Assembly (NCBI GenBank): GCA_017304675.1
Contig: JAFKLS010000020.1
Coordinates: 54,300-118,299 of the forward strand
Source: Sphingobacteriia bacterium
Lineage (GTDB): Bacteria > Bacteroidota > Bacteroidia > Chitinophagales > Chitinophagaceae
Length of the DNA stretch: 64,000 bases
Reading direction: 5' to 3'
Shown here one piece after another: positions 51,021 through 63,922 of this stretch. Numbering within the stretch: position 1 is the stretch's first letter; the number at the start of each line of letters is the position of its first letter. Made by a program: the position numbers and the translations under genes. The notes beneath the pieces were generated by a model. The model saw only the letters and a list, made by a program, of their open reading frames with translations. It had not been told where the DNA came from and ran no database searches.

Positions 51021-52676
51021 TTATCTGCTATTCGCATCATTCATTCTGATTCTTCTGCCACGATAGTTTTTACCATCAATTGCAGCGATCATTTGCTTTG
51101 CAGCTTTTTTCTCAATTTCAACCCAGCTGTTCATTTCTTTCATATCAATTCTTCCCAACACTTCTTTACGCAAATCACTCATATCTAAAATGAACTGTAA
51201 AAAACTTGCTTTATAAAAACCATCTTTCGTTCCAAGGTTTACAAACAATCTTGCATAATCGCTGCCGCCATGTTGAGCGCCTCTGTTATCTCTGCCTCTG
51301 CTTCTTCCCTGATCTCTTCCATCACCCGCATCTCTTCTTTCTCTGCGTTGTTCACGAATATTCAAATCACCTGCATTTTCATAATATTTCAAGAAACGAT
51401 CAAACTCAGTTGCTGCCATTCTTGTAAGAATTTCTTCTTTAGTAACGTCTGCAAATTTTTCCTGCAGCATTGGTAAATAAGTTTGATAATCTCCATGGGA
51501 AATATCTACCTGCAATAATTTATCCATGAAATGATAAAACTGTTTTCTGCAAACATCTTTACCACTTGGAATTTCCAGTTTATGAAAAGTGGCTTGCACC
51601 ATTTTTTCAATCGAACGAATCTTGTACACATCTTTTGTATGCACGATACTCATACAAATACCTGTGCTTCCAGCCCTACCCGTACGGCCGCTTCTGTGTG
51701 TATACACTTCAATATCGTCAGGTAATTCAAAATTGATAACGTGTGTAATTTCTTTCACATCAATACCACGAGCCGCAACATCTGTTGCCACCAACAACTG
51801 CAAGGTTTTATCGCGAAACTCACCCATTACTTTATCACGTTGTTGCTGCGTTAAATCGCCATGCAAAGCATCAATATCGTAACCATCTCTGGTTAATTTT
51901 TCAGCAATATTTTGTGCATCAACTTTGGTACGAGTGAAAATGATACCATACATTCCCGGATTGAAATCAATCAATCTTTTTAATGCTTCGTAACGTTGAC
52001 TGGCATTTACAACAAAGTATTGATGATCGATACTTTTGTTGGTCGTATTCATTTTACCAACCGTTACTTCCACGGGATCTTTCATGTAACGCTTACTAAC
52101 TCTGCGAATTTCAGCTGGCATAGTTGCGCTGAATAACCAGGTAGATTCACGCTTTGGAGTATTTTCTAAAATGAATTCAATATCATCTTTAAAACCCATG
52201 TTCAGCATTTCATCTGCTTCATCTAAAACCACATAACTGATCTGTTCTAAGTTGATGGCTTTCCTTTCGATTAAATCAATCAATCTCCCCGGAGTTGCCA
52301 CCACTATCTGAACGCCTCTTCTCAAGTCGCGGATCTGCATACTGATAGATGCACCACCATACACCGCCACAACGTGTAGCCCTGGCATGAACTTTTTAAA
52401 CCCTTCAATTTCTGTTACGATCTGCATACACAATTCACGTGTAGGGCAAACCACCAATGCTTGCGGATATCTCTGAGAAGCATCTACTAATTGTAATAAT
52501 GGCAAGCCAAATGCTGCCGTTTTTCCTGTGCCTGTTTGAGCCAATCCAATTAAATCCTTCGTACCGTTTAGCAATACAGGAATAGCCTTTTCCTGTATTA
52601 AAGTTGGGTTCACAAACCCCAACGCATCGGTAGCTTTAATCAAATTCGCATCCAAGCCTAACTCACTAAATGTCAT
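51021..52676 (-). CDS. DEAD-box ATP-dependent RNA helicase with an RG-rich linker and DbpA-like C-terminal RNA-binding domain
   Basis: Q-motif, AQTGTGKT, DEADEM, SAT and HRSGRTGRAG are present. The C-terminus is ...RRERRDAGDGRDQGRSRGRDNRG... followed by the DbpA fold. Confidence 0.9.
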   Translation of the reverse strand: MTFSELGLDANLIKATDALGFVNPTLIQEKAIPVLLNGTKDLIGLAQTGTGKTAAFGLPLLQLVDASQRYPQALVVCPTRELCMQIVTEIEGFKKFMPGLHVVAVYGGASISMQIRDLRRGVQIVVATPGRLIDLIERKAINLEQISYVVLDEADEMLNMGFKDDIEFILENTPKRESTWLFSATMPAEIRRVSKRYMKDPVEVTVGKMNTTNKSIDHQYFVVNASQRYEALKRLIDFNPGMYGIIFTRTKVDAQNIAEKLTRDGYDIDALHGDLTQQQRDKVMGEFRDKTLQLLVATDVAARGIDVKEITHVINFELPDDIEVYTHRSGRTGRAGSTGICMSIVHTKDVYKIRSIEKMVQATFHKLEIPSGKDVCRKQFYHFMDKLLQVDISHGDYQTYLPMLQEKFADVTKEEILTRMAATEFDRFLKYYENAGDLNIREQRRERRDAGDGRDQGRSRGRDNRGAQHGGSDYARLFVNLGTKDGFYKASFLQFILDMSDLRKEVLGRIDMKEMNSWVEIEKKAAKQMIAAIDGKNYRGRRIRMNDANSR

Positions 52677-52828
52677 ATTCTGTTTTTAAAATTTGCGGCA
52701 AAGGTAACTAAAACCACTCCGTTGCCCTGTTTTATTTAGTAAAGTGTTGTTTAGCAAGCTTTTACCTTCATGGCATCGCCTGTTGCGTCGCACTCTTCAA
52801 CGCTTTGAACTTTACTTGTCAATTTTTT

Positions 52829-52897
52829 TGTCATGCTGAGATCGTCAAAGCATTTGCTACTTTTATTCTCAGATTCTTCGCTTCGCTCAGAATGACA
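52829..52897. repeat. REP/MITE-like palindromic intergenic element (GTCATTCTGAGCGAAGCGAAGAATC type)
   Basis: The terminal inverted repeat is TGTCATGCTGAG ... CTCAGAATGACA (11/12). It generates the spurious peptide HSERSEESE, which I remember as typical of a widespread Bacteroidota repeat. Confidence 0.6.
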
Positions 52898-52898
52898 A

Positions 52899-53627
52899 TT
52901 ATTGTAAAAATTTCCTCCAATTATTTTTCCAATAAGTTGAATAATCAAAGCCATGCTCACCTACTCGCTCAATTGTTTTCACAATATTTTCTTTAACCAT
53001 AGCTAATTGATTGTTATTAATCTTATAAATTATACCGTTTTTTGGTTCATATTTTTTATTCCTCTCAGAATAAATTGCAAATTGAAAAATTACACCCAGC
53101 TCTATTCTTTTATAATTTTTAATCTGGAATAAATGAGATACAAATTGTCCACTTTTTTCAGGTTGATAATCAAAAAACAACCCTAAATCCTTATCTATTA
53201 ATTGCATTTTTTGTTCATCAAATTCTTTTCCTGTATAAGTAAGATCATAATAAATTGAATCATTCAAATCTCTTGTCGAATATTCCCCACTTGAAACAAA
53301 TATGTTGTTTTGTGGATTAAAAAGATAAACATCATAACTTAATTTCTGCCAAACAGCAATATCAGGGAATCCGTTTTTATCAATATCTATACTTCTAATA
53401 TATTTCGCAGCATCAAAAAAAGAATCAATGGTCTTCCATTTATTGTTTTCAAATTTTTCAATTACAACATTTTCTTTTGTAGTATCCTCCAAGCGAATTT
53501 TAAATTTTACTTTATTAACATAAAATGTATCTCCTTTTACAGAAGGCCAATGAAAATCACTTGCTTGCCCTTTGCAAAAAGGATTGCAAAAAGTAAAAGT
53601 CAATAGTATCGTAAATACTTTTTTCAT
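52899..53627 (-). CDS. Hypothetical secreted protein, AT-rich, inserted within the aromatic gene cluster
   Basis: 242 aa. Signal peptide MKKVFTILLTFTF and one DIDKNGFPDIAV (FG-GAP/VCBS-like) segment. No family recognised. Confidence 0.5.
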   Translation of the reverse strand: MKKVFTILLTFTFCNPFCKGQASDFHWPSVKGDTFYVNKVKFKIRLEDTTKENVVIEKFENNKWKTIDSFFDAAKYIRSIDIDKNGFPDIAVWQKLSYDVYLFNPQNNIFVSSGEYSTRDLNDSIYYDLTYTGKEFDEQKMQLIDKDLGLFFDYQPEKSGQFVSHLFQIKNYKRIELGVIFQFAIYSERNKKYEPKNGIIYKINNNQLAMVKENIVKTIERVGEHGFDYSTYWKNNWRKFLQ

Positions 53628-53641
53628 TTTCCACTTTCCAT

Positions 53642-54535
53642 TTACTTAATAATTTTTCTGATCTTATTTGCCTTCTCCATCAGCTCATTTAAAAATTCAA
53701 GGTTCTCTTTTTCCAAAGCGCTTTTAAATTTCCTGAGTTGAGAAATATGTTCATTTAAAACATCCAATACATTTTCTTTGTTCTGCATAAAAATCGGCGC
53801 CCACATAGCTGGATTACTTTTTGCCAAACGAACGGTGCTTTCAAAACCACCACCGGCCAATTCAAAAATGGCATCTTCTTCTTTTTCTTTCTCTAAAACC
53901 GTATTCGCCAAAGCAAAAGAAGTGATGTGTGAAATATGGCTTACATAAGCCGCATGCATATCGTGATCATGTGCATTCATATACACCAAATGCATTCCCA
54001 ATTCTTTATAAATATTTTCAACAATCTCAACTGCTGTTGCATCACTTTTTTCTTTTTCACAGATCACACAAGCCCTGCCTGCAAACGCATTTTGCACAGC
54101 TGCTTCCGGACCACTATATTCTGTTCCCCACATAGGATGTGTTGCAACAAATCTTTTTCTGTTTGCATGATTTTCTAAAGCCTCGCATAAAGCAAATTTT
54201 GTAGACCCCGCATCCACCACAATTTGTTTGTCATTCACCAAATCCATTATTTGTTGCATAATAGGAATGGTAGCATCAACAGGAATGGCCACATAAATCA
54301 AATCAGCTTTTTTAACGGCTTCTTCCAAAGGCAATACTTCATCTACCAAATTCAATTGCAACACTTTTTGCTTTGTTTCTTCTCTATTGCACACACCAAT
54401 GATATGCGATGCCAACTTTTTATTTTTTAAAGCCAACGCAAATGAACCACCAATTAATCCAACACCCACGACACAAACTGACAATTGAGAATTGACAATT
54501 GACAATTGGAGATTATTATCTGTACTATTTGTCAT
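53642..54535 (-). CDS. tyrA: Prephenate dehydrogenase
   Basis: The Rossmann segment VVGVGLIGGSFALAL and HPMWG are present. The first ~18 codons are encoded by a heptamer array, so the true start is uncertain. Confidence 0.85.
   Translation of the reverse strand: MTNSTDNNLQLSIVNSQLSVCVVGVGLIGGSFALALKNKKLASHIIGVCNREETKQKVLQLNLVDEVLPLEEAVKKADLIYVAIPVDATIPIMQQIMDLVNDKQIVVDAGSTKFALCEALENHANRKRFVATHPMWGTEYSGPEAAVQNAFAGRACVICEKEKSDATAVEIVENIYKELGMHLVYMNAHDHDMHAAYVSHISHITSFALANTVLEKEKEEDAIFELAGGGFESTVRLAKSNPAMWAPIFMQNKENVLDVLNEHISQLRKFKSALEKENLEFLNELMEKANKIRKIIK
54476..54517. repeat. Heptamer tandem array, AATTGAC family, encoding the tyrA N-terminus
   Basis: AACTGAC AATTGAG AATTGAC AATTGAC AATTGGA GATTATT, encoding NNLQLSIVNSQLSV. 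Confidence 0.8.
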
Positions 54536-54581
54536 TACTCTGTTTGCTTGATTTAATGATACTAATTAATAATTTCAGCAA

Positions 54582-54887
54582 CTATTTACAATCAGAATTA
54601 AGGCTTTCAAAGAGCTTTTGATCCAAATAACCTGATTGATGCAATAATTCTAACCAATATTCAGTTTCATTTGCTTCTTTCAGTGCAATTGATAATTTAT
54701 GAATAAAATCAGTTTTACTTTGAGCTTGTTCTGCTTCTCGAATATTTGCTCCAATTGAAGTTCCACTTCGCAACAATTGCTTTGACAAAATATGTTCTTG
54801 CTTCTCCGAACACAAATATTGATTGCATTTAACTATTCTAAGTGCAAAGGCAAAACTTTTCTCTTTTAAAATATTTTCTTTCTTCAT
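54582..54887 (-). CDS. Four-helix-bundle protein (23S rRNA intervening-sequence protein / Avd family)
   Basis: About 101 aa. SFAFALRIVK...QLLRSGTSIGANIREA...F..KLSIALKEANETEYWLELL is the TIGR02436/PF05635 pattern. ATG at 54887. Confidence 0.8.
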   Translation of the reverse strand: MKKENILKEKSFAFALRIVKCNQYLCSEKQEHILSKQLLRSGTSIGANIREAEQAQSKTDFIHKLSIALKEANETEYWLELLHQSGYLDQKLFESLNSDCK

Positions 54888-54888
54888 T

Positions 54889-54916
54889 GTCAATTATCAA
54901 TTGTCAATTTTTAATT
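54889..54916. repeat. Heptamer tandem array GTCAATT (inverted relative to 54476-54517)
   Basis: GTCAATT ATCAATT GTCAATT TTTAATT. It spans the gap between the aminotransferase stop and the four-helix-bundle start. Confidence 0.75.
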
Positions 54917-56121
54917 CTTCTGATTGCTTCTTCAAAACGCTCAATACTTCCGCACAAACTCACTCTTATATAACCATCTCCTGCCGTTCCAAAAATTCCA
55001 CCCGGAGTGATGAACACATTTGAGTTGTATAAAACTTCATCACTCAATTCATATCCGTTTTTATATGTTGAAGGGATCTTTGCCCACACAAACATTCCAA
55101 CTTGTTTTGTAGAATATTCACATTGCAATAGATCCAACAATTCAAAAACCTTTGTTCTTCTTTCTGTGTAAATTTTATTCACGCTATCGTACCAATCTTT
55201 ATCCAAGCTCAACGCTTTTGCGGCAGCCAATTGTACCGGCAAGAACATACCGCTATCCATATTGCTTTTAAACTTCAATACTTCATCAATTCTTTCTTTA
55301 GCACCACACAACATACCAACACGCCATCCCGCCATATTAGATGATTTACTTAATGAGTTTAATTCTAACACAACATCTTTTGCGCCATCTACACTCAACA
55401 AACTTTTAGGATTATTATTCAAAATAAAACTGTAGGGATTATCGTGAATGATGAGGATATTATTCTTCCTCCCAAATGCAACAATTTTTTTAAACAATGC
55501 ATCATTAGCATTTTGTCCGGTTGGCATTTGCGGATAATTCACAAAAAGCCCCTTAATCCCCTGAAGGGGAAATGATGAAATCAATTTTTCTAATTCAGCA
55601 AAATCGGGTTCATAATTATTTTCTTCTTTTAAATTATAATATACAGGCGTAGCTCCTGAAAGCTTTACTGCACTTGAATAAGTTGGATATCCAGGATTGG
55701 GCACCAATACTCCCACTCCTTCTTCAAAATACGTCATACAGATATGCATGATGCCTTCTTTACTTCCAATCAATGGCAAAATTTCTGTATCCGCATTCAA
55801 CTCAACATTGTACCATTTCTTATACCAATCCTTCACTGCATTTCTCAATACAGGAGAACCTTTGTAAGATTGATAAGCATGAACATTAGGCTTTGCGCTT
55901 TCTTCCTGCAACACTTTTATAACATCAGGGTGTGGTGGTAAATTCGGACTACCAATTCCCAAATTGATGATATTCTTTCCTTGCTTATTCAACTCATCAA
56001 TCTCTCTTAATTTTTGAGAGAAGTAATATTCGCCTATACCTTCTAAACGTTTGGCCACCCCCCACCCCCCTGAAGGGAGAGTTAATATAGATTCTGTTTC
56101 GCTTGTTGTATTTGATTTCAT
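54904..56121 (-). CDS. Class I/II PLP-dependent aminotransferase (probable aromatic/aspartate aminotransferase of the operon)
   Basis: SLSKSSNMAGWRVG (PLP lysine) and NPGYPTY are present. It carries two mini hairpin elements. Confidence 0.85.
   Translation of the reverse strand: MKSNTTSETESILTLPSGGWGVAKRLEGIGEYYFSQKLREIDELNKQGKNIINLGIGSPNLPPHPDVIKVLQEESAKPNVHAYQSYKGSPVLRNAVKDWYKKWYNVELNADTEILPLIGSKEGIMHICMTYFEEGVGVLVPNPGYPTYSSAVKLSGATPVYYNLKEENNYEPDFAELEKLISSFPLQGIKGLFVNYPQMPTGQNANDALFKKIVAFGRKNNILIIHDNPYSFILNNNPKSLLSVDGAKDVVLELNSLSKSSNMAGWRVGMLCGAKERIDEVLKFKSNMDSGMFLPVQLAAAKALSLDKDWYDSVNKIYTERRTKVFELLDLLQCEYSTKQVGMFVWAKIPSTYKNGYELSDEVLYNSNVFITPGGIFGTAGDGYIRVSLCGSIERFEEAIRRIKN
55549..55569. 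repeat. C4/G4 mini hairpin element inside the aminotransferase
   Basis: CCCCTTAATCCCCTGAAGGGG, encoding FPLQGIKG. Confidence 0.75.
56055..56077. repeat. C4/G4 mini hairpin element inside the aminotransferase N-terminal region
   Basis: CCACCCCCCACCCCCCTGAAGGG, encoding LPSGGWGV. Confidence 0.7.
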
Positions 56122-56152: not shown

Positions 56153-56176
56153 AAATTCTCCTTTAGGGGTTAGCGA
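56153..56176. repeat. C4/G4 mini hairpin element overlapping the pheA stop codon
   Basis: AAATTCTCCTTTAGGGGTTAGCGA. 21 of 24 nt are identical to 34320-34343. Confidence 0.75.
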
Positions 56177-56997
56177 TTACCGTTTTTATAAATTCCAAAA
56201 ACTGTTAACTCTTCTATCAACGATTGGATTTTATCCATTGCTTTATTGAATTGCTGAATGTTTTCAAATTCCAGATCAGCATGAAAACTGTATTTAAAAT
56301 TTGTTCCGGCAATTGGCATGCTTTGCAGTTTACTAAGATTAATATCTGCTTCAGCGATCTTTGTTAATACTTTTGCCAAACTTCCTTTTGTATGATTTGT
56401 TTGAAAATTGATAGACGCTTTATTTGCGTCATTCACAACAACTTCTTCATCTTTTCTTTTCAGAACTAAAAATCTTGTGTAGTTATTCTTTTGCGTGTGA
56501 ATGTTGGGAGCAGCAATTTCTAAATTGAATAATTCTGCCGCCAGTTTCCCTGCTACAGCCGCTATATGTTTGCTTTTGTGCTGATGAACATGTTTGGCAC
56601 TTAAGGCTGTATCTTCTGTATCCACTAATTTCCAATGATATTTATCTAAATAATCCATGCATTGCTGAATGGCCATTGGATGAGAATGCACTTCTTTAAT
56701 GTCTTCAAGCTTTACTCCGGGATTCACGAGTAAATGTTGTTTGATGGGCAAATACACTTCACCAACAATTTTCAAATTACCCTTTTGTAACAAAGTATAA
56801 TTGGGAAGAATGCTTCCGGCAATGGAATTTTCAATAGCCATTACACCACCATTACTTTCTTTTTTGTTGGAAGCAATTTTCACCACTTCTCTGAAAGTGC
56901 CACAGGGAATAACTTCTACATTATTTCCGAAGTACTGCCTTGCAGCCATTTGATGAAAACTGCCTTCATAACCTTGTATGGATACTTTAACTGACAT
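56170..56997 (-). CDS. pheA: Prephenate dehydratase
   Basis: The PDT domain (IQGYEGSFH...ENSIAGSI) and a C-terminal ACT domain are present. Confidence 0.9.
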   Translation of the reverse strand: MSVKVSIQGYEGSFHQMAARQYFGNNVEVIPCGTFREVVKIASNKKESNGGVMAIENSIAGSILPNYTLLQKGNLKIVGEVYLPIKQHLLVNPGVKLEDIKEVHSHPMAIQQCMDYLDKYHWKLVDTEDTALSAKHVHQHKSKHIAAVAGKLAAELFNLEIAAPNIHTQKNNYTRFLVLKRKDEEVVVNDANKASINFQTNHTKGSLAKVLTKIAEADINLSKLQSMPIAGTNFKYSFHADLEFENIQQFNKAMDKIQSLIEELTVFGIYKNGNR

Positions 56998-57005
56998 AAA
57001 TTAAA

Positions 57006-57028
57006 AATCCCGGCTTTTGACCGGGATT
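57006..57028 (-). promoter_or_regulatory. Attenuator terminator hairpin immediately upstream of pheA
   Basis: On the minus strand the RNA reads AAUCCCGG-UCAAAAG-CCGGGAUU, followed by UUUAAUUU and then the pheA AUG at 56997. Confidence 0.6.
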
Positions 57029-57054
57029 GTATTTTGATTTTTTATTTGCTTTAG

Positions 57055-57141
57055 TTACGCTTTTACAAATACTACCCGGCTACTTGGTTTAAAGTAGTAA
57101 TAAAAAAAATAAAAGAAAGTATTTGCAATTGTTTGTTTCAT
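57055..57141 (-). CDS. Phe/Tyr-rich leader peptide of the aromatic operon (28 aa)
   Basis: My own codon-by-codon translation gives MKQTIANTFFYFFYYYFKPSSRVVFVKA followed by a stop. Nine consecutive aromatic codons lie 27 nt upstream of a terminator hairpin. Confidence 0.6.
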   Translation of the reverse strand: MKQTIANTFFYFFYYYFKPSSRVVFVKA

Positions 57142-57245
57142 AACTGTGTGAAAATACTAACATTTTAATACTGACAAAATATTTTTTTGTTAGCCATTAA
57201 AAAAAATTATGAATAAACGTTTGTTAGTTTTAAATAAAAGACATT

Positions 57246-57271
57246 AAAAAAGCCGCTCTGAGAGCGGCTTT
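57246..57271 (-). terminator. Rho-independent terminator of clpC
   Basis: AAGCCGCTC / GAGCGGCTT 9-bp stem, followed by TTTTTT on the minus strand. Confidence 0.75.
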
Positions 57272-57282
57272 CAGTTTGATTA

Positions 57283-59862
57283 TTATTTTTCAGCTCCGGC
57301 ACTTGCGTTTTCTTCTGCTGTTGTTTCTTTTAATGTAAAAGTTATTTTACCATTCTCTTTATCTAAACCTGCCACCAGTACATCACCGTTTTTTATATGC
57401 ATATTTAAAATTTCTTCTGCTAAAGGATCTTCCAAATATTTTTGAATAGCCCTATGCAATGGTCTTGCACCGAATTGCACATCGTATCCTTTATCTGCAA
57501 TGAATGATTTAGCATCTTCCGTTAATTCTAAACTGAATCCAAGATTCGCTAATCTCTTTGTTACACCTTTCATTAGGATGTCAATGATGCTGAAAATGTT
57601 TTCTTTGCTAAGTGAATTGAAAATAACCACATCATCTATTCTGTTCAAGAACTCAGGAGAAAAAGTTCTCTTCAATGCTTTCTCAATAACTGCTTTATTA
57701 TTTTCTTCCTGGTTTTGTACTCTTGCGGCTGTTGCAAAACCAACACCATCGCCAAACTCTTTCAATTGGCGAACACCAATGTTCGAAGTCATGATAATAA
57801 GCGTATTCTTGAAATCAACTTTTCTACCCAAGCCATCTGTTAGCTGACCATCATCTAATACCTGCAATAAAATGTTGTAAATATCAGGATGCGCTTTTTC
57901 AATTTCATCCAACAGAATTACACAATAGGGTTTGCGGCGAACTTTCTCCGTTAATTGCCCGCCTTCTTCATAACCCACATAGCCCGGAGGAGCACCAATT
58001 AAACGGCTAACAGTAAATTTTTCCATGTATTCGCTCATGTCGATTCTTATTAAAGAATCTTCACTATCGAACATGTAACGAGCTAAACTTCTTGCCAGCT
58101 CTGTTTTACCAACACCAGTTGGCCCTAAGAAGATAAATGTACCAATAGGTTTCTTCGGATCTTTTAAGCCAACCCTGTTACGTTGAATAGCTTTCACCAC
58201 TTTCTGAATAGCTTCATCCTGGCCAATTACCATTCCCCGCATATCATCACTCATTCTACGCAGCTTTTCTGTTTCTGCCTGCACCATTCTTTTTACAGGA
58301 ATACCGGTCATCATACTCACTACCTCAGCAATATTTTCTTCATTGATAGGGTAGCGTTTATTTTTACTTTCCTCTTCCCACTGCGTTTTTGCAGTTTCCA
58401 GTTCTTCCCCTAAACGTTTTTCTTTATCGCGTAACGCTGCAGCTTCTTCGAAGCGCTGGCTTTTTACAACTTTATTTTTTTCATTCTTGATTTCCTCAAT
58501 CTGTTTTTCCAGTTCAACAATATTTTGAGGAACATTGATGTTCTTTAAGTGCACTCTTGCTCCAACTTCATCCAACACATCAATGGCTTTATCAGGTAAT
58601 AACCTGTCGGTCATATACCTGTCGCTCAATTTCACACAAGCTTCAATGGCTTCTGCATCGTATTCAACATTATGGTAATCTTCGTACTTGTTTTTTATAT
58701 TGTTTAATATCTGAATGGTTTCTTCAACACTTGGCGGTTCTACCAATACTTTTTGAAAACGACGATCCAGTGCACCATCTTTTTCAATGTACATTCTATA
58801 CTCATCTAAAGTAGAAGCACCAATACATTGCAATTCTCCTCTTGCCAAAGCAGGTTTAAAAATATTGGAAGCATCCAACGAACCGCTGGCACCACCCGCA
58901 CCAACAATGGTATGAATTTCATCGATGAACAAAATCACATCCCTATTCTTTTCCAATTCGTTCATAATGGCCTTCATTCTTTCTTCAAACTGTCCGCGAT
59001 ATTTTGTTCCTGCCACCAATGCAGCCAAATCTAAACTAATCACACGCTTATCAAATAAAACCCTTGAAACTTTTCTTTGTACAATACGCAATGCCAATCC
59101 TTCAACGATTGCTGTTTTACCCACACCCGGCTCTCCAATTAAAATCGGGTTATTTTTTTTGCGGCGTGAAAGTATTTGAGAAACTCTTTCAATTTCTGCT
59201 TCTCTTCCAACAATAGGATCTAGAGAGCCTGTTTCGGCGAGCTTTGTAATGTCTCTGCCAAAATTGTCTAATACAGGCGTTTTACTTTTGGTATTGGAAG
59301 CTTGTTTACTTCCTGCACCGCGGGGTTGCTGAAAACCGCCTCTTTGTTTCTCATCATCAAAATCATCATCATCATTTTCTGTGAATTCAGATTTTGGTGA
59401 AGAAGTGCCGCTACCAGGTTGTGTACTACCTACAACACCCAATTCGTTCCTGAAAATATCATAGTCCACATCAAACTGGTTTAAAATCTGAGTGGCAATG
59501 TTTTCCTTATTCTTTAAGATACTGAGTAACAAATGCTCTGTTTCTACCAGAGGACTTTTTAAAGCTTTTGCTTCCAGAACGGTAACACGAATTACCTTTT
59601 CTGCCTGCTTGGTTAAGGGAAGGCTGTTAATATTAGCAATATTCTTTCCCGTTTTATCTTTTACTGCCAGTTCTATCTCTTTACGCAATTCGTAAAGATC
59701 AACATTCAATTGCTTTAAAACTTTTATAGCTATATTATCTCCATCTCTTATTAAACCAAGCAGTAAATGCTCTGTGCCGATGAAATCGTTGCCCAACCTC
59801 AATGCTTCTTCCCTGCTGAACGAGATGATTTCTTTTACCTGAGCTGAAAAATTATTATCCAT
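57283..59862 (-). CDS. clpC: ATP-dependent Clp protease ATP-binding subunit (ClpC/ClpA-B family, two AAA+ modules)
   Basis: Clp_N repeats, GEPGVGKT and GPTGVGKT Walker A motifs and a UVR-like middle segment are present. I moved the start to the ATG at 59862 (MDNNFSAQV). Confidence 0.9.
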
Positions 59863-63851: not shown

Positions 63852-63922
63852 TGGGTTATGGTGTAACGGTAGCACTACAGATTTTGGTTCTGTCTGTCTA
63901 GGTTCGAATCCTAGTAACCCAA
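63852..63922 (+). tRNA. tRNA-Gln (anticodon UUG)
   Basis: Manual cloverleaf. Acceptor is TGGGTTA/TAACCCA, D stem GTGT/GCAC, anticodon stem ACAGA/TCTGT with loop TTTTGGT, and T arm CTAGG-TTCGAAT-CCTAG. No CCA is encoded. Confidence 0.85.

Follow-up and report, generated by a model that had tools for sequence, protein, structure and literature searches.

What does the region between clpB and pheA do in a 64,000-nucleotide (nt) stretch of a Sphingobacteriia bacterium (Chitinophagaceae; GCA_017304675.1, contig JAFKLS010000020.1, positions 54,300 to 118,299), and how would it act on the aromatic amino acid genes that follow it? A first-pass annotation of this stretch (referred to below as the window, at its full length) had read a short open reading frame (ORF) and a hairpin in front of pheA as an attenuator of the pheL/trpL type. 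In following up this reading, we found all those features of the type that can be tested computationally to be present and conserved, from the mini-ORF with its regulatory codons, the terminator and the antiterminator that excludes it to a 1:2 stem further upstream and a stop codon at which a terminating ribosome would mask segment 2. Very probably, the pheA-aminotransferase-tyrA operon is controlled by transcription attenuation through a leader peptide and the ribosome that translates it. Coordinates are those of the window, and the element and the genes behind it lie on the minus strand.

The leader ORF spans 57055..57141 and comprises 28 codons plus a stop (MKQTIANTFFYFFYYYFKPSSRVVFVKA), as read from the strand itself and from the ORF list. 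Specifically, codons 9-17 (57091..57117) make up the presumed regulatory run FFYFFYYYF, in which five Phe and four Tyr codons follow each other without interruption, so that re-reading the strand at 57141..57055 returned just the 28-codon ORF with nine consecutive Phe/Tyr codons that had been annotated. Across all six reading frames of the window, every other Phe/Tyr run is five codons long at most, and a run of nine did not arise once in 300 shuffles with the local composition kept (0/300). Moreover, a scan of the entire 64 kb for leader-peptide attenuators returned the pheA leader as its sole match. The tandem Phe/Tyr codons precede an operon reaching from pheA to tyrA. Since pheA serves the Phe branch of the pathway and the prephenate dehydrogenase gene the Tyr branch, the mixed codons match the genes that they precede. 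An overlapping ORF in another frame (57163..57089, MLVFSHSYETNNCKYFLLFFLLLL) reads Leu and Phe; this Leu-rich frame was not conserved in relatives and is probably not meaningful.

Minimum free energy (MFE) folding of the leader region yielded a structure of -31.9 kcal/mol (z = -3.1 versus shuffles), the elements of which were a long 1:2 stem and a terminator. Segment 1 (UUGCAAAUACUUUCU, 57114..57128, codons 5-10) provides the 5′ strand of the 1:2 stem, in which 57128..57114 is paired with 57077..57063, and its 3′ end falls within the first codons of the Phe/Tyr run. Segment 2 (GCCGGGUAGUAUUUGUAA, 57063..57080) found alternative partners in segment 1 or segment 3 in the folds. Segment 3 (AAAUACAAUCCCGGU, 57020..57034) pairs with segment 2 through its 5′ part, and its 3′ part (57028..57020) doubles as the terminator 5′ arm. 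With the transcript ended before segment 4 and a ribosome footprint placed on the Phe/Tyr run, an antiterminator was formed between 57080..57067 and 57034..57020 (2:3; free energy, ΔG, -12.4 kcal/mol), which shares 57025..57020 with the terminator stem and is therefore mutually exclusive with it. The intrinsic terminator itself occupies 57001..57028, with a stem AAUCCCGGU/GCCGGGAUU (57028..57006) closed by the loop CAAAA, a U-run at 57007..57003 and then AAUUU. The terminator scan reported this hairpin as AATCCCGGT-CAAAA-GCCGGGATT (57028..57006; nine pairs, five of them G-C), followed by TTTAATTT, with a ΔG of -13.2 kcal/mol and the stem ending 8 nt before the pheA ATG (56997). Since the upstream clpB gene has a terminator of its own at 57271..57249, the hairpin at 57028..57006 is not the clpB terminator.

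These folds bear directly on what had been seen by eye in the first-pass annotation. The hairpin and U-tract ahead of pheA were recovered with the nine pairs and 8-nt spacing just given, the predicted antiterminator between 57066-57080 and 57021-57036 was correctly placed and folded as expected, and the comparison of terminator with antiterminator energies (-13.2 vs -12.4 kcal/mol) that it had proposed indeed yielded mutually exclusive structures. Its 1:2-type hairpin CUACUU/AAGUAG (57080..57097) also exists, with 57097..57092 pairing to 57085..57080 in the MFE fold, but it is merely the apical tip nested within the longer 57128..57114/57077..57063 stem. In relatives, the last bases of the run can likewise be seen to form a hairpin with those that follow, in differing registers.

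Searching with a profile of PheA homologues provided 80 loci from 80 species-level genomes, all of them Chitinophagaceae-like, and the leader/terminator module was found upstream of pheA in every one (80/80). The leader starts with ATG in 79/80 loci and with GTG in the remaining one (L041), and the 80 leaders contain on average 5.4 Phe, 3.7 Tyr and 0.2 Trp residues, amounting to 35% aromatic residues. In 78/79 loci, a hairpin followed by a U-tract begins 14-46 nt past the leader stop, with energies of -11 to -24 kcal/mol. The aromatic mini-ORF and the hairpin are thus both kept among relatives, as the earlier reading had predicted, together with compensatory changes in all three stems (see below). 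Because clpB is the upstream neighbour in the closest relatives only, the module appears to belong to, and travel with, pheA.

The three alternative helices were subsequently examined across these loci. In a MAFFT alignment (A2), window-type and main-type sequences had their CCGGG cores shifted against each other, and only the terminator was found by RNAalifold, with 6/11 pairs compensatory. Because of this register slip, we instead relied on an alignment-free duplex test and on alignments guided by covariance models. In the former, the duplex energies of each locus's segments with one another were compared with those obtained against the segments of every other locus. Cognate duplexes were more stable on average for 2:3 (-19.75 vs -16.72 kcal/mol for non-cognate duplexes), 1:2 (-12.31 vs -9.93 kcal/mol) and 3:4 (-18.71 vs -14.76 kcal/mol), and for each of the three, 0/5000 permutations performed as well. 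The control pairs 1:3, 1:4 and 2:4 yielded weak duplexes and no cognate advantage in the same test.

For the latter, two covariance models (R1 and R2) were built on the alternative structures and all sources were realigned. Each model gave exactly one match per source, always directly upstream of pheA, with the window scoring 90.8 bits with R1 and 97 bits with R2. In the resulting alignments, the 2:3 antiterminator (alignment A3) had 83% of its cells paired and changes on both sides at 14/18 pairs, with a covariation score of 0.195 as compared to 0.105 for shuffles and at most 0.100 for slid-partner controls. Both-side changes were found at 8/9 pairs of the 1:2 stem and at 7/11 pairs of the 3:4 terminator, in which 96.8% of cells were paired, and the model combining 1:2 with the terminator reached a covariation of 0.354 (vs 0.171 for shuffles and at most 0.117 for slid controls). 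As such model-guided alignments are biased towards the structure that was modelled, the alignment-free test serves as their independent check. The compensation can also be followed from locus to locus: segments 2/3/4 read GCCGGG/CCCGGU/GCCGGG in the window and GUCGGG/CCCGAC/GUCGGG in two relatives with 87% PheA identity (L091 and L092), a further locus (L001) represents a G-U intermediate of this three-way compensation, and more distant loci change in step (CGGGGA/UCCCCCG, GAGGAU/AUCCUCCG or GCGGGAU/AUCCCGC).

The position of these helices relative to the ribosome footprint was then considered, using folds that were ended before segment 4. With a ribosome simulated in the middle of the run, the terminator 5′ arm was more than 60% paired to segment 2 in 74/79 loci, with averages over the 79 loci of 0.78 for arm pairing and -18.2 for ΔG. 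With a ribosome simulated at the stop codon (masking up to stop+10), the arm was more than 60% paired in 0/79 loci, with a mean of 0.07. The window behaved accordingly, as a footprint on the Phe/Tyr run allowed 2:3 to form, and a footprint at the stop covered segment 2 and left the arm free. Measured from the invariant G in segment 2, the stop codon of the 80 leaders lies at -6 to +27 nt, with a median of 20. This G falls in all three codon positions (64, 12 and 4 loci), with the same segment 2 nucleotides being read as RPGMLLL, SSRVVF or IVRDAF depending on the locus, which shows that the 3′ part of the ORF is constrained as RNA rather than as peptide. In the ORF itself, conservation concerns the start, the aromatic run and the position of the end, which is what attenuation would require.

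We infer from this arrangement that the ORF is translated and that ribosome stalling would be the decider. Transcription would start a few nt upstream of the leader AUG, and segments 1 and 2 would be the first to pair, as a long hairpin. When both Phe-tRNA and Tyr-tRNA are plentiful, the ribosome would pass the nine codons and reach the stop, 6 nt past segment 2, thereby covering segment 2. Segment 3 would then pair with segment 4 into the terminator, and RNA polymerase would halt 8 nt before pheA. When either charged tRNA is scarce, the ribosome would stall in the run and, as segment 1 ends inside the first codons of this run, a ribosome stalled there covers segment 1 and would leave segment 2 free. 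The free segment 2 could in turn capture segment 3 as soon as the latter is made, sequestering the terminator 5′ arm and allowing read-through into pheA and tyrA.

Transcription of the leader might be driven by a putative Bacteroidota-type promoter at 57149..57188, composed of a -33-like A-tract/TTTG (AAAAAAATATTTTG, 57188..57175) and a degenerate -7 box (TATTTTCA for TAnnTTTG, 57156..57149) that matches at 4/6 positions and ends 7 nt before the leader ATG. Because its -7 box is degenerate, the window promoter could be assigned by homology only. Among the relatives, 68/79 loci carry an exact TAnnTTTG whose last base lies 4-16 nt (mode 7) ahead of the leader ATG, with A-rich/TTTG sequence at the -33 position. 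The TATTTTCA variant is common to two contigs from relatives with 93% PheA identity (L089 and L090), and relatives at 87-89% PheA identity carry the canonical TAnnTTTG box upstream of the leader, so this variant may represent a weakened or shifted promoter in the clade of the window. In Flavobacterium psychrophilum, transcription of the pheA 5′ region has been mapped to start 6 nt after such a -7 motif (Guerin et al. 2021, ISME Commun, PMC9723704), and by this yardstick most Chitinophagaceae leaders would have a 5′ untranslated region (5′UTR) of roughly 0-5 nt. The TAnnTTTG motif was used in place of a sigma-70 promoter scan, which is uninformative in Bacteroidota. As a separate observation, TAnnTTTG occurs 51 times on both strands of the window, as opposed to 97.5 +/- 10 expected from dinucleotide shuffles (100/100 shuffles gave at least 51), and the motif appears to be avoided outside promoters.

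A number of points weigh against attenuation by a stalled ribosome. In equilibrium folds of the full leader with ribosome masks, the terminator prevailed in nearly every state. Because the terminator wins at equilibrium once segment 4 is present, the switch, if it operates as proposed, must be kinetic, as is likewise accepted for the trp leader of Escherichia coli. Equilibrium folding is no valid test of a kinetic switch, and it is for this reason that folds ended before segment 4 were used. In ribosome-free shortened transcripts, moreover, 2:3 competed with 1:2 in 63/79 loci, so that the ribosome-free terminated state depends on the order of folding. Furthermore, the U-tract is short (five U, then AAUUU), the -7 box in the window is degenerate, and pheA could be transcribed by read-through from clpB. 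Finally, the evidence for this organism and family is computational throughout, and we know of no demonstration of transcription-translation coupling in Bacteroidota.

The question then is whether another mechanism could account for the same features. One would be that the same terminator/antiterminator switch is set by an RNA-binding protein, uncharged tRNA or a small molecule, with the Phe/Tyr ORF arising as a by-product of a U-rich structural segment. Such an explanation could draw on the conservation of three helices at the RNA level, on the RNA constraint in the 3′ half of the ORF, and on the run being U-rich with one alternative frame that is uninterrupted by stops. Nevertheless, the Phe/Tyr frame is opened by a start codon in 80/80 loci (with an in-frame ATG in 79/79), versus 3 and 8 of 79 for the other two frames, and the codons of the run are almost exclusively TTT, TTC, TAT and TAC. 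Moreover, the run is mostly an unpaired loop without a conserved helix, and the stop codon is always close enough to segment 2 for a ribosome there to reach it. Neither T-boxes nor riboswitches were matched, be it among the Rfam matches to E = 10 in 56800..57400 or in a gathering-threshold scan of the whole window, and the encoded amino acids match the products of the operon. Taken together, these observations make a switch that is not set by the ribosome improbable.

Another explanation would be that the hairpin acts chiefly on the translation of pheA, by blocking access to the bases immediately before its AUG. Translation initiation in Bacteroidota does not depend on Shine-Dalgarno pairing and requires that the start region be open, which together with the 8 nt between stem and ATG in the window, and a spacing of at most 25 nt in 39/79 loci, would fit with such occlusion. 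The distance between terminator hairpin and pheA nevertheless ranges from 3 to 198 nt across 79 loci, and in the 30/79 loci in which it exceeds 60 nt, the U-tract and the switch are kept. In F. psychrophilum, transcript levels of the 5′ region and of the gene differ across conditions, which indicates termination (PMC9723704). Occlusion as the primary function is thus very improbable, and could rather come in as an added effect. That the ORF encodes a functional hydrophobic micro-peptide, with the hairpin merely as its terminator, is hardly credible. Conservation at the peptide level does extend to the N-terminal motif (M..K/T-A/N-Y/T) and the aromatic core, but not to the C-terminal third, in which the same nucleotides are conserved and read in three frames. 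Moreover, the length varies between 21 and 31 residues (median 27, 80 leaders), no Pfam or NCBIfam model matches the leader peptides, a gene terminator needs no covarying antiterminator, and the ORF is always immediately upstream of pheA.

If the element acts as a ribosome-mediated attenuator, the extent of the unit under its control is of importance. The first regulated gene is pheA (56170..56997), encoding a prephenate dehydratase with ACT domain (Pfam PDT 1.2e-58 plus ACT; NCBIfam prephenate dehydratase), and it is followed by genes for a class I/II aminotransferase (54904..56121; Pfam/NCBIfam), a four-helix-bundle/23S rRNA intervening-sequence protein (54582..54893; PF05635, TIGR02436) and prephenate dehydrogenase (tyrA, 53642..54535; Pfam/NCBIfam), and by a 242-residue ORF without Pfam family (52899..53627) that matches an XAC2610-related NCBIfam model below threshold (16.7 bits vs a cut-off of 35). 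Neither promoter motifs nor terminators were found between the genes across 52899..56121, and the terminator scan revealed no convincing intrinsic terminator within the aromatic cluster. The gene order pheA-aminotransferase-prephenate dehydrogenase(-DAHP synthase/chorismate mutase) is also kept in distant Bacteroidota loci. Control by the attenuator of pheA through prephenate dehydrogenase, approximately 4 kb, is well founded.

The next gene, encoding a DEAD-box helicase with a DbpA RNA-binding domain (51021-52706 together with its promoter motif), splits the aromatic cluster between tyrA and the gene for DAHP synthase-chorismate mutase, which is followed on the same strand by aroB, aroA and aroC. 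The helicase gene is preceded by its own TAnnTTTG at 52706..52699, 23 nt upstream of its ATG, and a single 10-kb unit is therefore unproven. Moreover, the DAHP synthase gene of F. psychrophilum has its own transcription start (PMC9723704). Of the read-through into a supraoperon of roughly 10 kb that the first-pass annotation had envisaged, the pheA-tyrA part of about 4 kb thus stands, and the remainder is no more than possible. Two further observations concern this stretch. The four-helix-bundle/23S intervening-sequence gene that separates the aminotransferase gene from tyrA is absent from that position in the distant loci examined, and a sequence at around 52867-52897 (GTCATTCTGAGCGAAGCGAAGAATCTGAG), located around the stop of the 242-residue ORF with its first bases inside the ORF, resembles a short imperfect repeat or palindrome-rich element.

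The breadth of the family was assessed at eight distant loci obtained via divergent PheA homologues, from Lutimonas, Lutibacter, a Robiginitalea-like flavobacterium, an Ichthyobacteriaceae metagenome-assembled genome (MAG), a Flavobacteriales-like contig, Chitinophaga caeni, a Bacteroidota MAG and a Rikenellaceae MAG. An aromatic-rich mini-ORF followed by a terminator was present upstream of pheA in 8/8 of these, the Rikenellaceae locus being the weakest. The model R2, built on Chitinophagaceae, detected 7/8 (E 5e-8 to 4e-3), including three Flavobacteriaceae, so that one common model covers them, and gave no match at the Rikenellaceae locus (L081). The latter locus carries, at ~995-1040 and just upstream of its weaker aromatic leader (MFSPFQNRFCYFYHCRGGTGRSCA), the tandem repeats GCATCGGGC x3 and GATTT x3. 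The C. caeni locus (L087, CP023777.1) contains two leader-terminator modules in tandem upstream of pheA (862-993 and 1017-1163), encoding MTLHRTVAYFYGFYFFWYQER and M(LQQV)QRPYFYYFFYYFFFGKKPGALL, each with its own terminator and scoring 35 and 50 bits with R2; these may constitute a stacked attenuator.

This pheA leader family is thus conserved in Bacteroidota, uncatalogued in curated RNA and protein libraries, and already noticed in Flavobacterium. The element in the window is a genuine attenuator of the classical type with both Phe and Tyr codons, and the first-pass annotation was right in substance. It is no discovery of principle, since the mechanism is textbook and a related Flavobacterium element has already been annotated. 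Nevertheless, with each of the three helices covarying over at least 80 genomes, leader-peptide attenuation of pheA-tyrA emerges as a conserved device of Bacteroidota, and the annotation of these genomes would benefit from the alignment and model now at hand for a family that Rfam, Pfam and NCBIfam lack. In addition, the element represents a clear natural case in which a sensor of both Phe and Tyr goes with an operon for both branches, and it could serve as a simple system for studying transcription-translation coupling and near-leaderless initiation in Bacteroidota, with their unusual promoters and their lack of Shine-Dalgarno usage. More tentatively, the family might represent an ancient, uncatalogued and Bacteroidota-wide OR gate with two inputs, in which starvation for either Phe or Tyr would open a two-branch operon, and with a Chitinophagaceae leader that is possibly itself leaderless or nearly so, as its -7 box lies 4-10 nt before the AUG in most loci. 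Should this be the case, it would amount to a "leaderless leader peptide" in a phylum without Shine-Dalgarno initiation, and to a direct handle on transcription-translation coupling in Bacteroidota.

No Rfam, Pfam or NCBIfam model covers the pheA leader element, and in the Rfam gathering-threshold scan of the whole window, a tRNA gene (63852-63922, plus strand) was the only match. Membership of the proteobacterial Phe_leader family (RF01859) was considered and rejected, as the element scored 28.2 bits (E 0.014) against a gathering threshold of 55, and the nearby clpB terminator scored 25.9. Trp_leader was likewise rejected, with sub-threshold matches only, the clpB terminator again being among them. 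The experimentally studied analogues are, as summarised in PMC11802643, pheL of E. coli and aroR of Corynebacterium glutamicum. The E. coli pheL-pheA system (RF01859; Zurawski 1978, Gavini & Pulakat 1991, as cited in PMC11802643) resembles the element in the window in its leader with tandem codons, its 1:2, 2:3 and 3:4 pairings and its terminator before pheA. However, pheL senses Phe only and targets pheA alone (chorismate mutase/prephenate dehydratase), whereas the leader in the window mixes Phe and Tyr codons and precedes a two-branch operon. The host of pheL moreover uses Shine-Dalgarno initiation, unlike the phylum of the window, and homology between the two leaders is detectable neither in sequence nor in structure. 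The aroR leader before aroF in C. glutamicum (Neshat et al. 2014, as cited in PMC11802643) shares with the window mixed Phe-Tyr-Phe codons, ribosome stalling and an aromatic operon as target. It differs in belonging to Actinobacteria, in having three regulatory codons, in preceding a DAHP synthase gene and, as recounted there, in responding to Phe and not to Tyr, and its sequence is unrelated to that of the window leader.

Within Bacteroidota, no work in which such an element had been probed by mutation or biochemistry came up in a literature search. A 2004 abstract by Vitreschak and colleagues reportedly mentions attenuators in Bacteroidetes/Chlorobi, which may include that of pheA. The Bacteroid-trp RNA (RF01692; Weinberg et al. 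2010, PMC2864571), which has been mapped upstream of trpE in F. psychrophilum (PMC9723704), is like the element in the window a cis-regulatory RNA with a leader peptide, from the same phylum and upstream of an aromatic operon. In contrast to the latter, it carries Trp codons and targets the trp operon, and it was not among the 39 Rfam matches to E = 10 in 56800..57400.

The closest counterpart is found in F. psychrophilum, in which a "leader peptide attenuation element" has been annotated 5′ of pheA by Guerin et al. 2021 (PMC9723704, Table S7/SI D9). Its 5′ end has been mapped, its read-through varies with conditions, and expression of the operon peaks in minimal medium. The first-pass annotation had known of no experimentally characterised pheA attenuator in the phylum, which this annotated relative, with its mapped start and read-through, now corrects. 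The element was reported to be conserved in other Flavobacteriaceae, and the absence of an Rfam family was noted there as well (PMC9723704). Its host belongs to another order of the phylum, and the annotation was based on transcriptomics and inspection. Its leader has fewer and interrupted aromatic codons, including Trp, unlike that of the window, and its mapped 5′UTR is 20 nt long, whereas the -7 box of Chitinophagaceae lies as near as 4-10 nt to the AUG. Nevertheless, it likewise precedes pheA-aminotransferase, its aromatic-rich mini-ORF (MNTNNTFYSNNSFYFYWNIGRDCYMVI) has an N-terminus resembling that of the window (M..T..NTF), and its segment 2 (GGGAUUGUUAUAU), segment 3 (AUAUACAAUCCCG) and terminator (AAUCCCG...CGGGAUUUUUUU) follow the same logic with similar sequence. 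When compared by folding rather than by model score, the published F. psychrophilum sequence folded into the same three states, and this element most probably belongs to the same family as that of the window.

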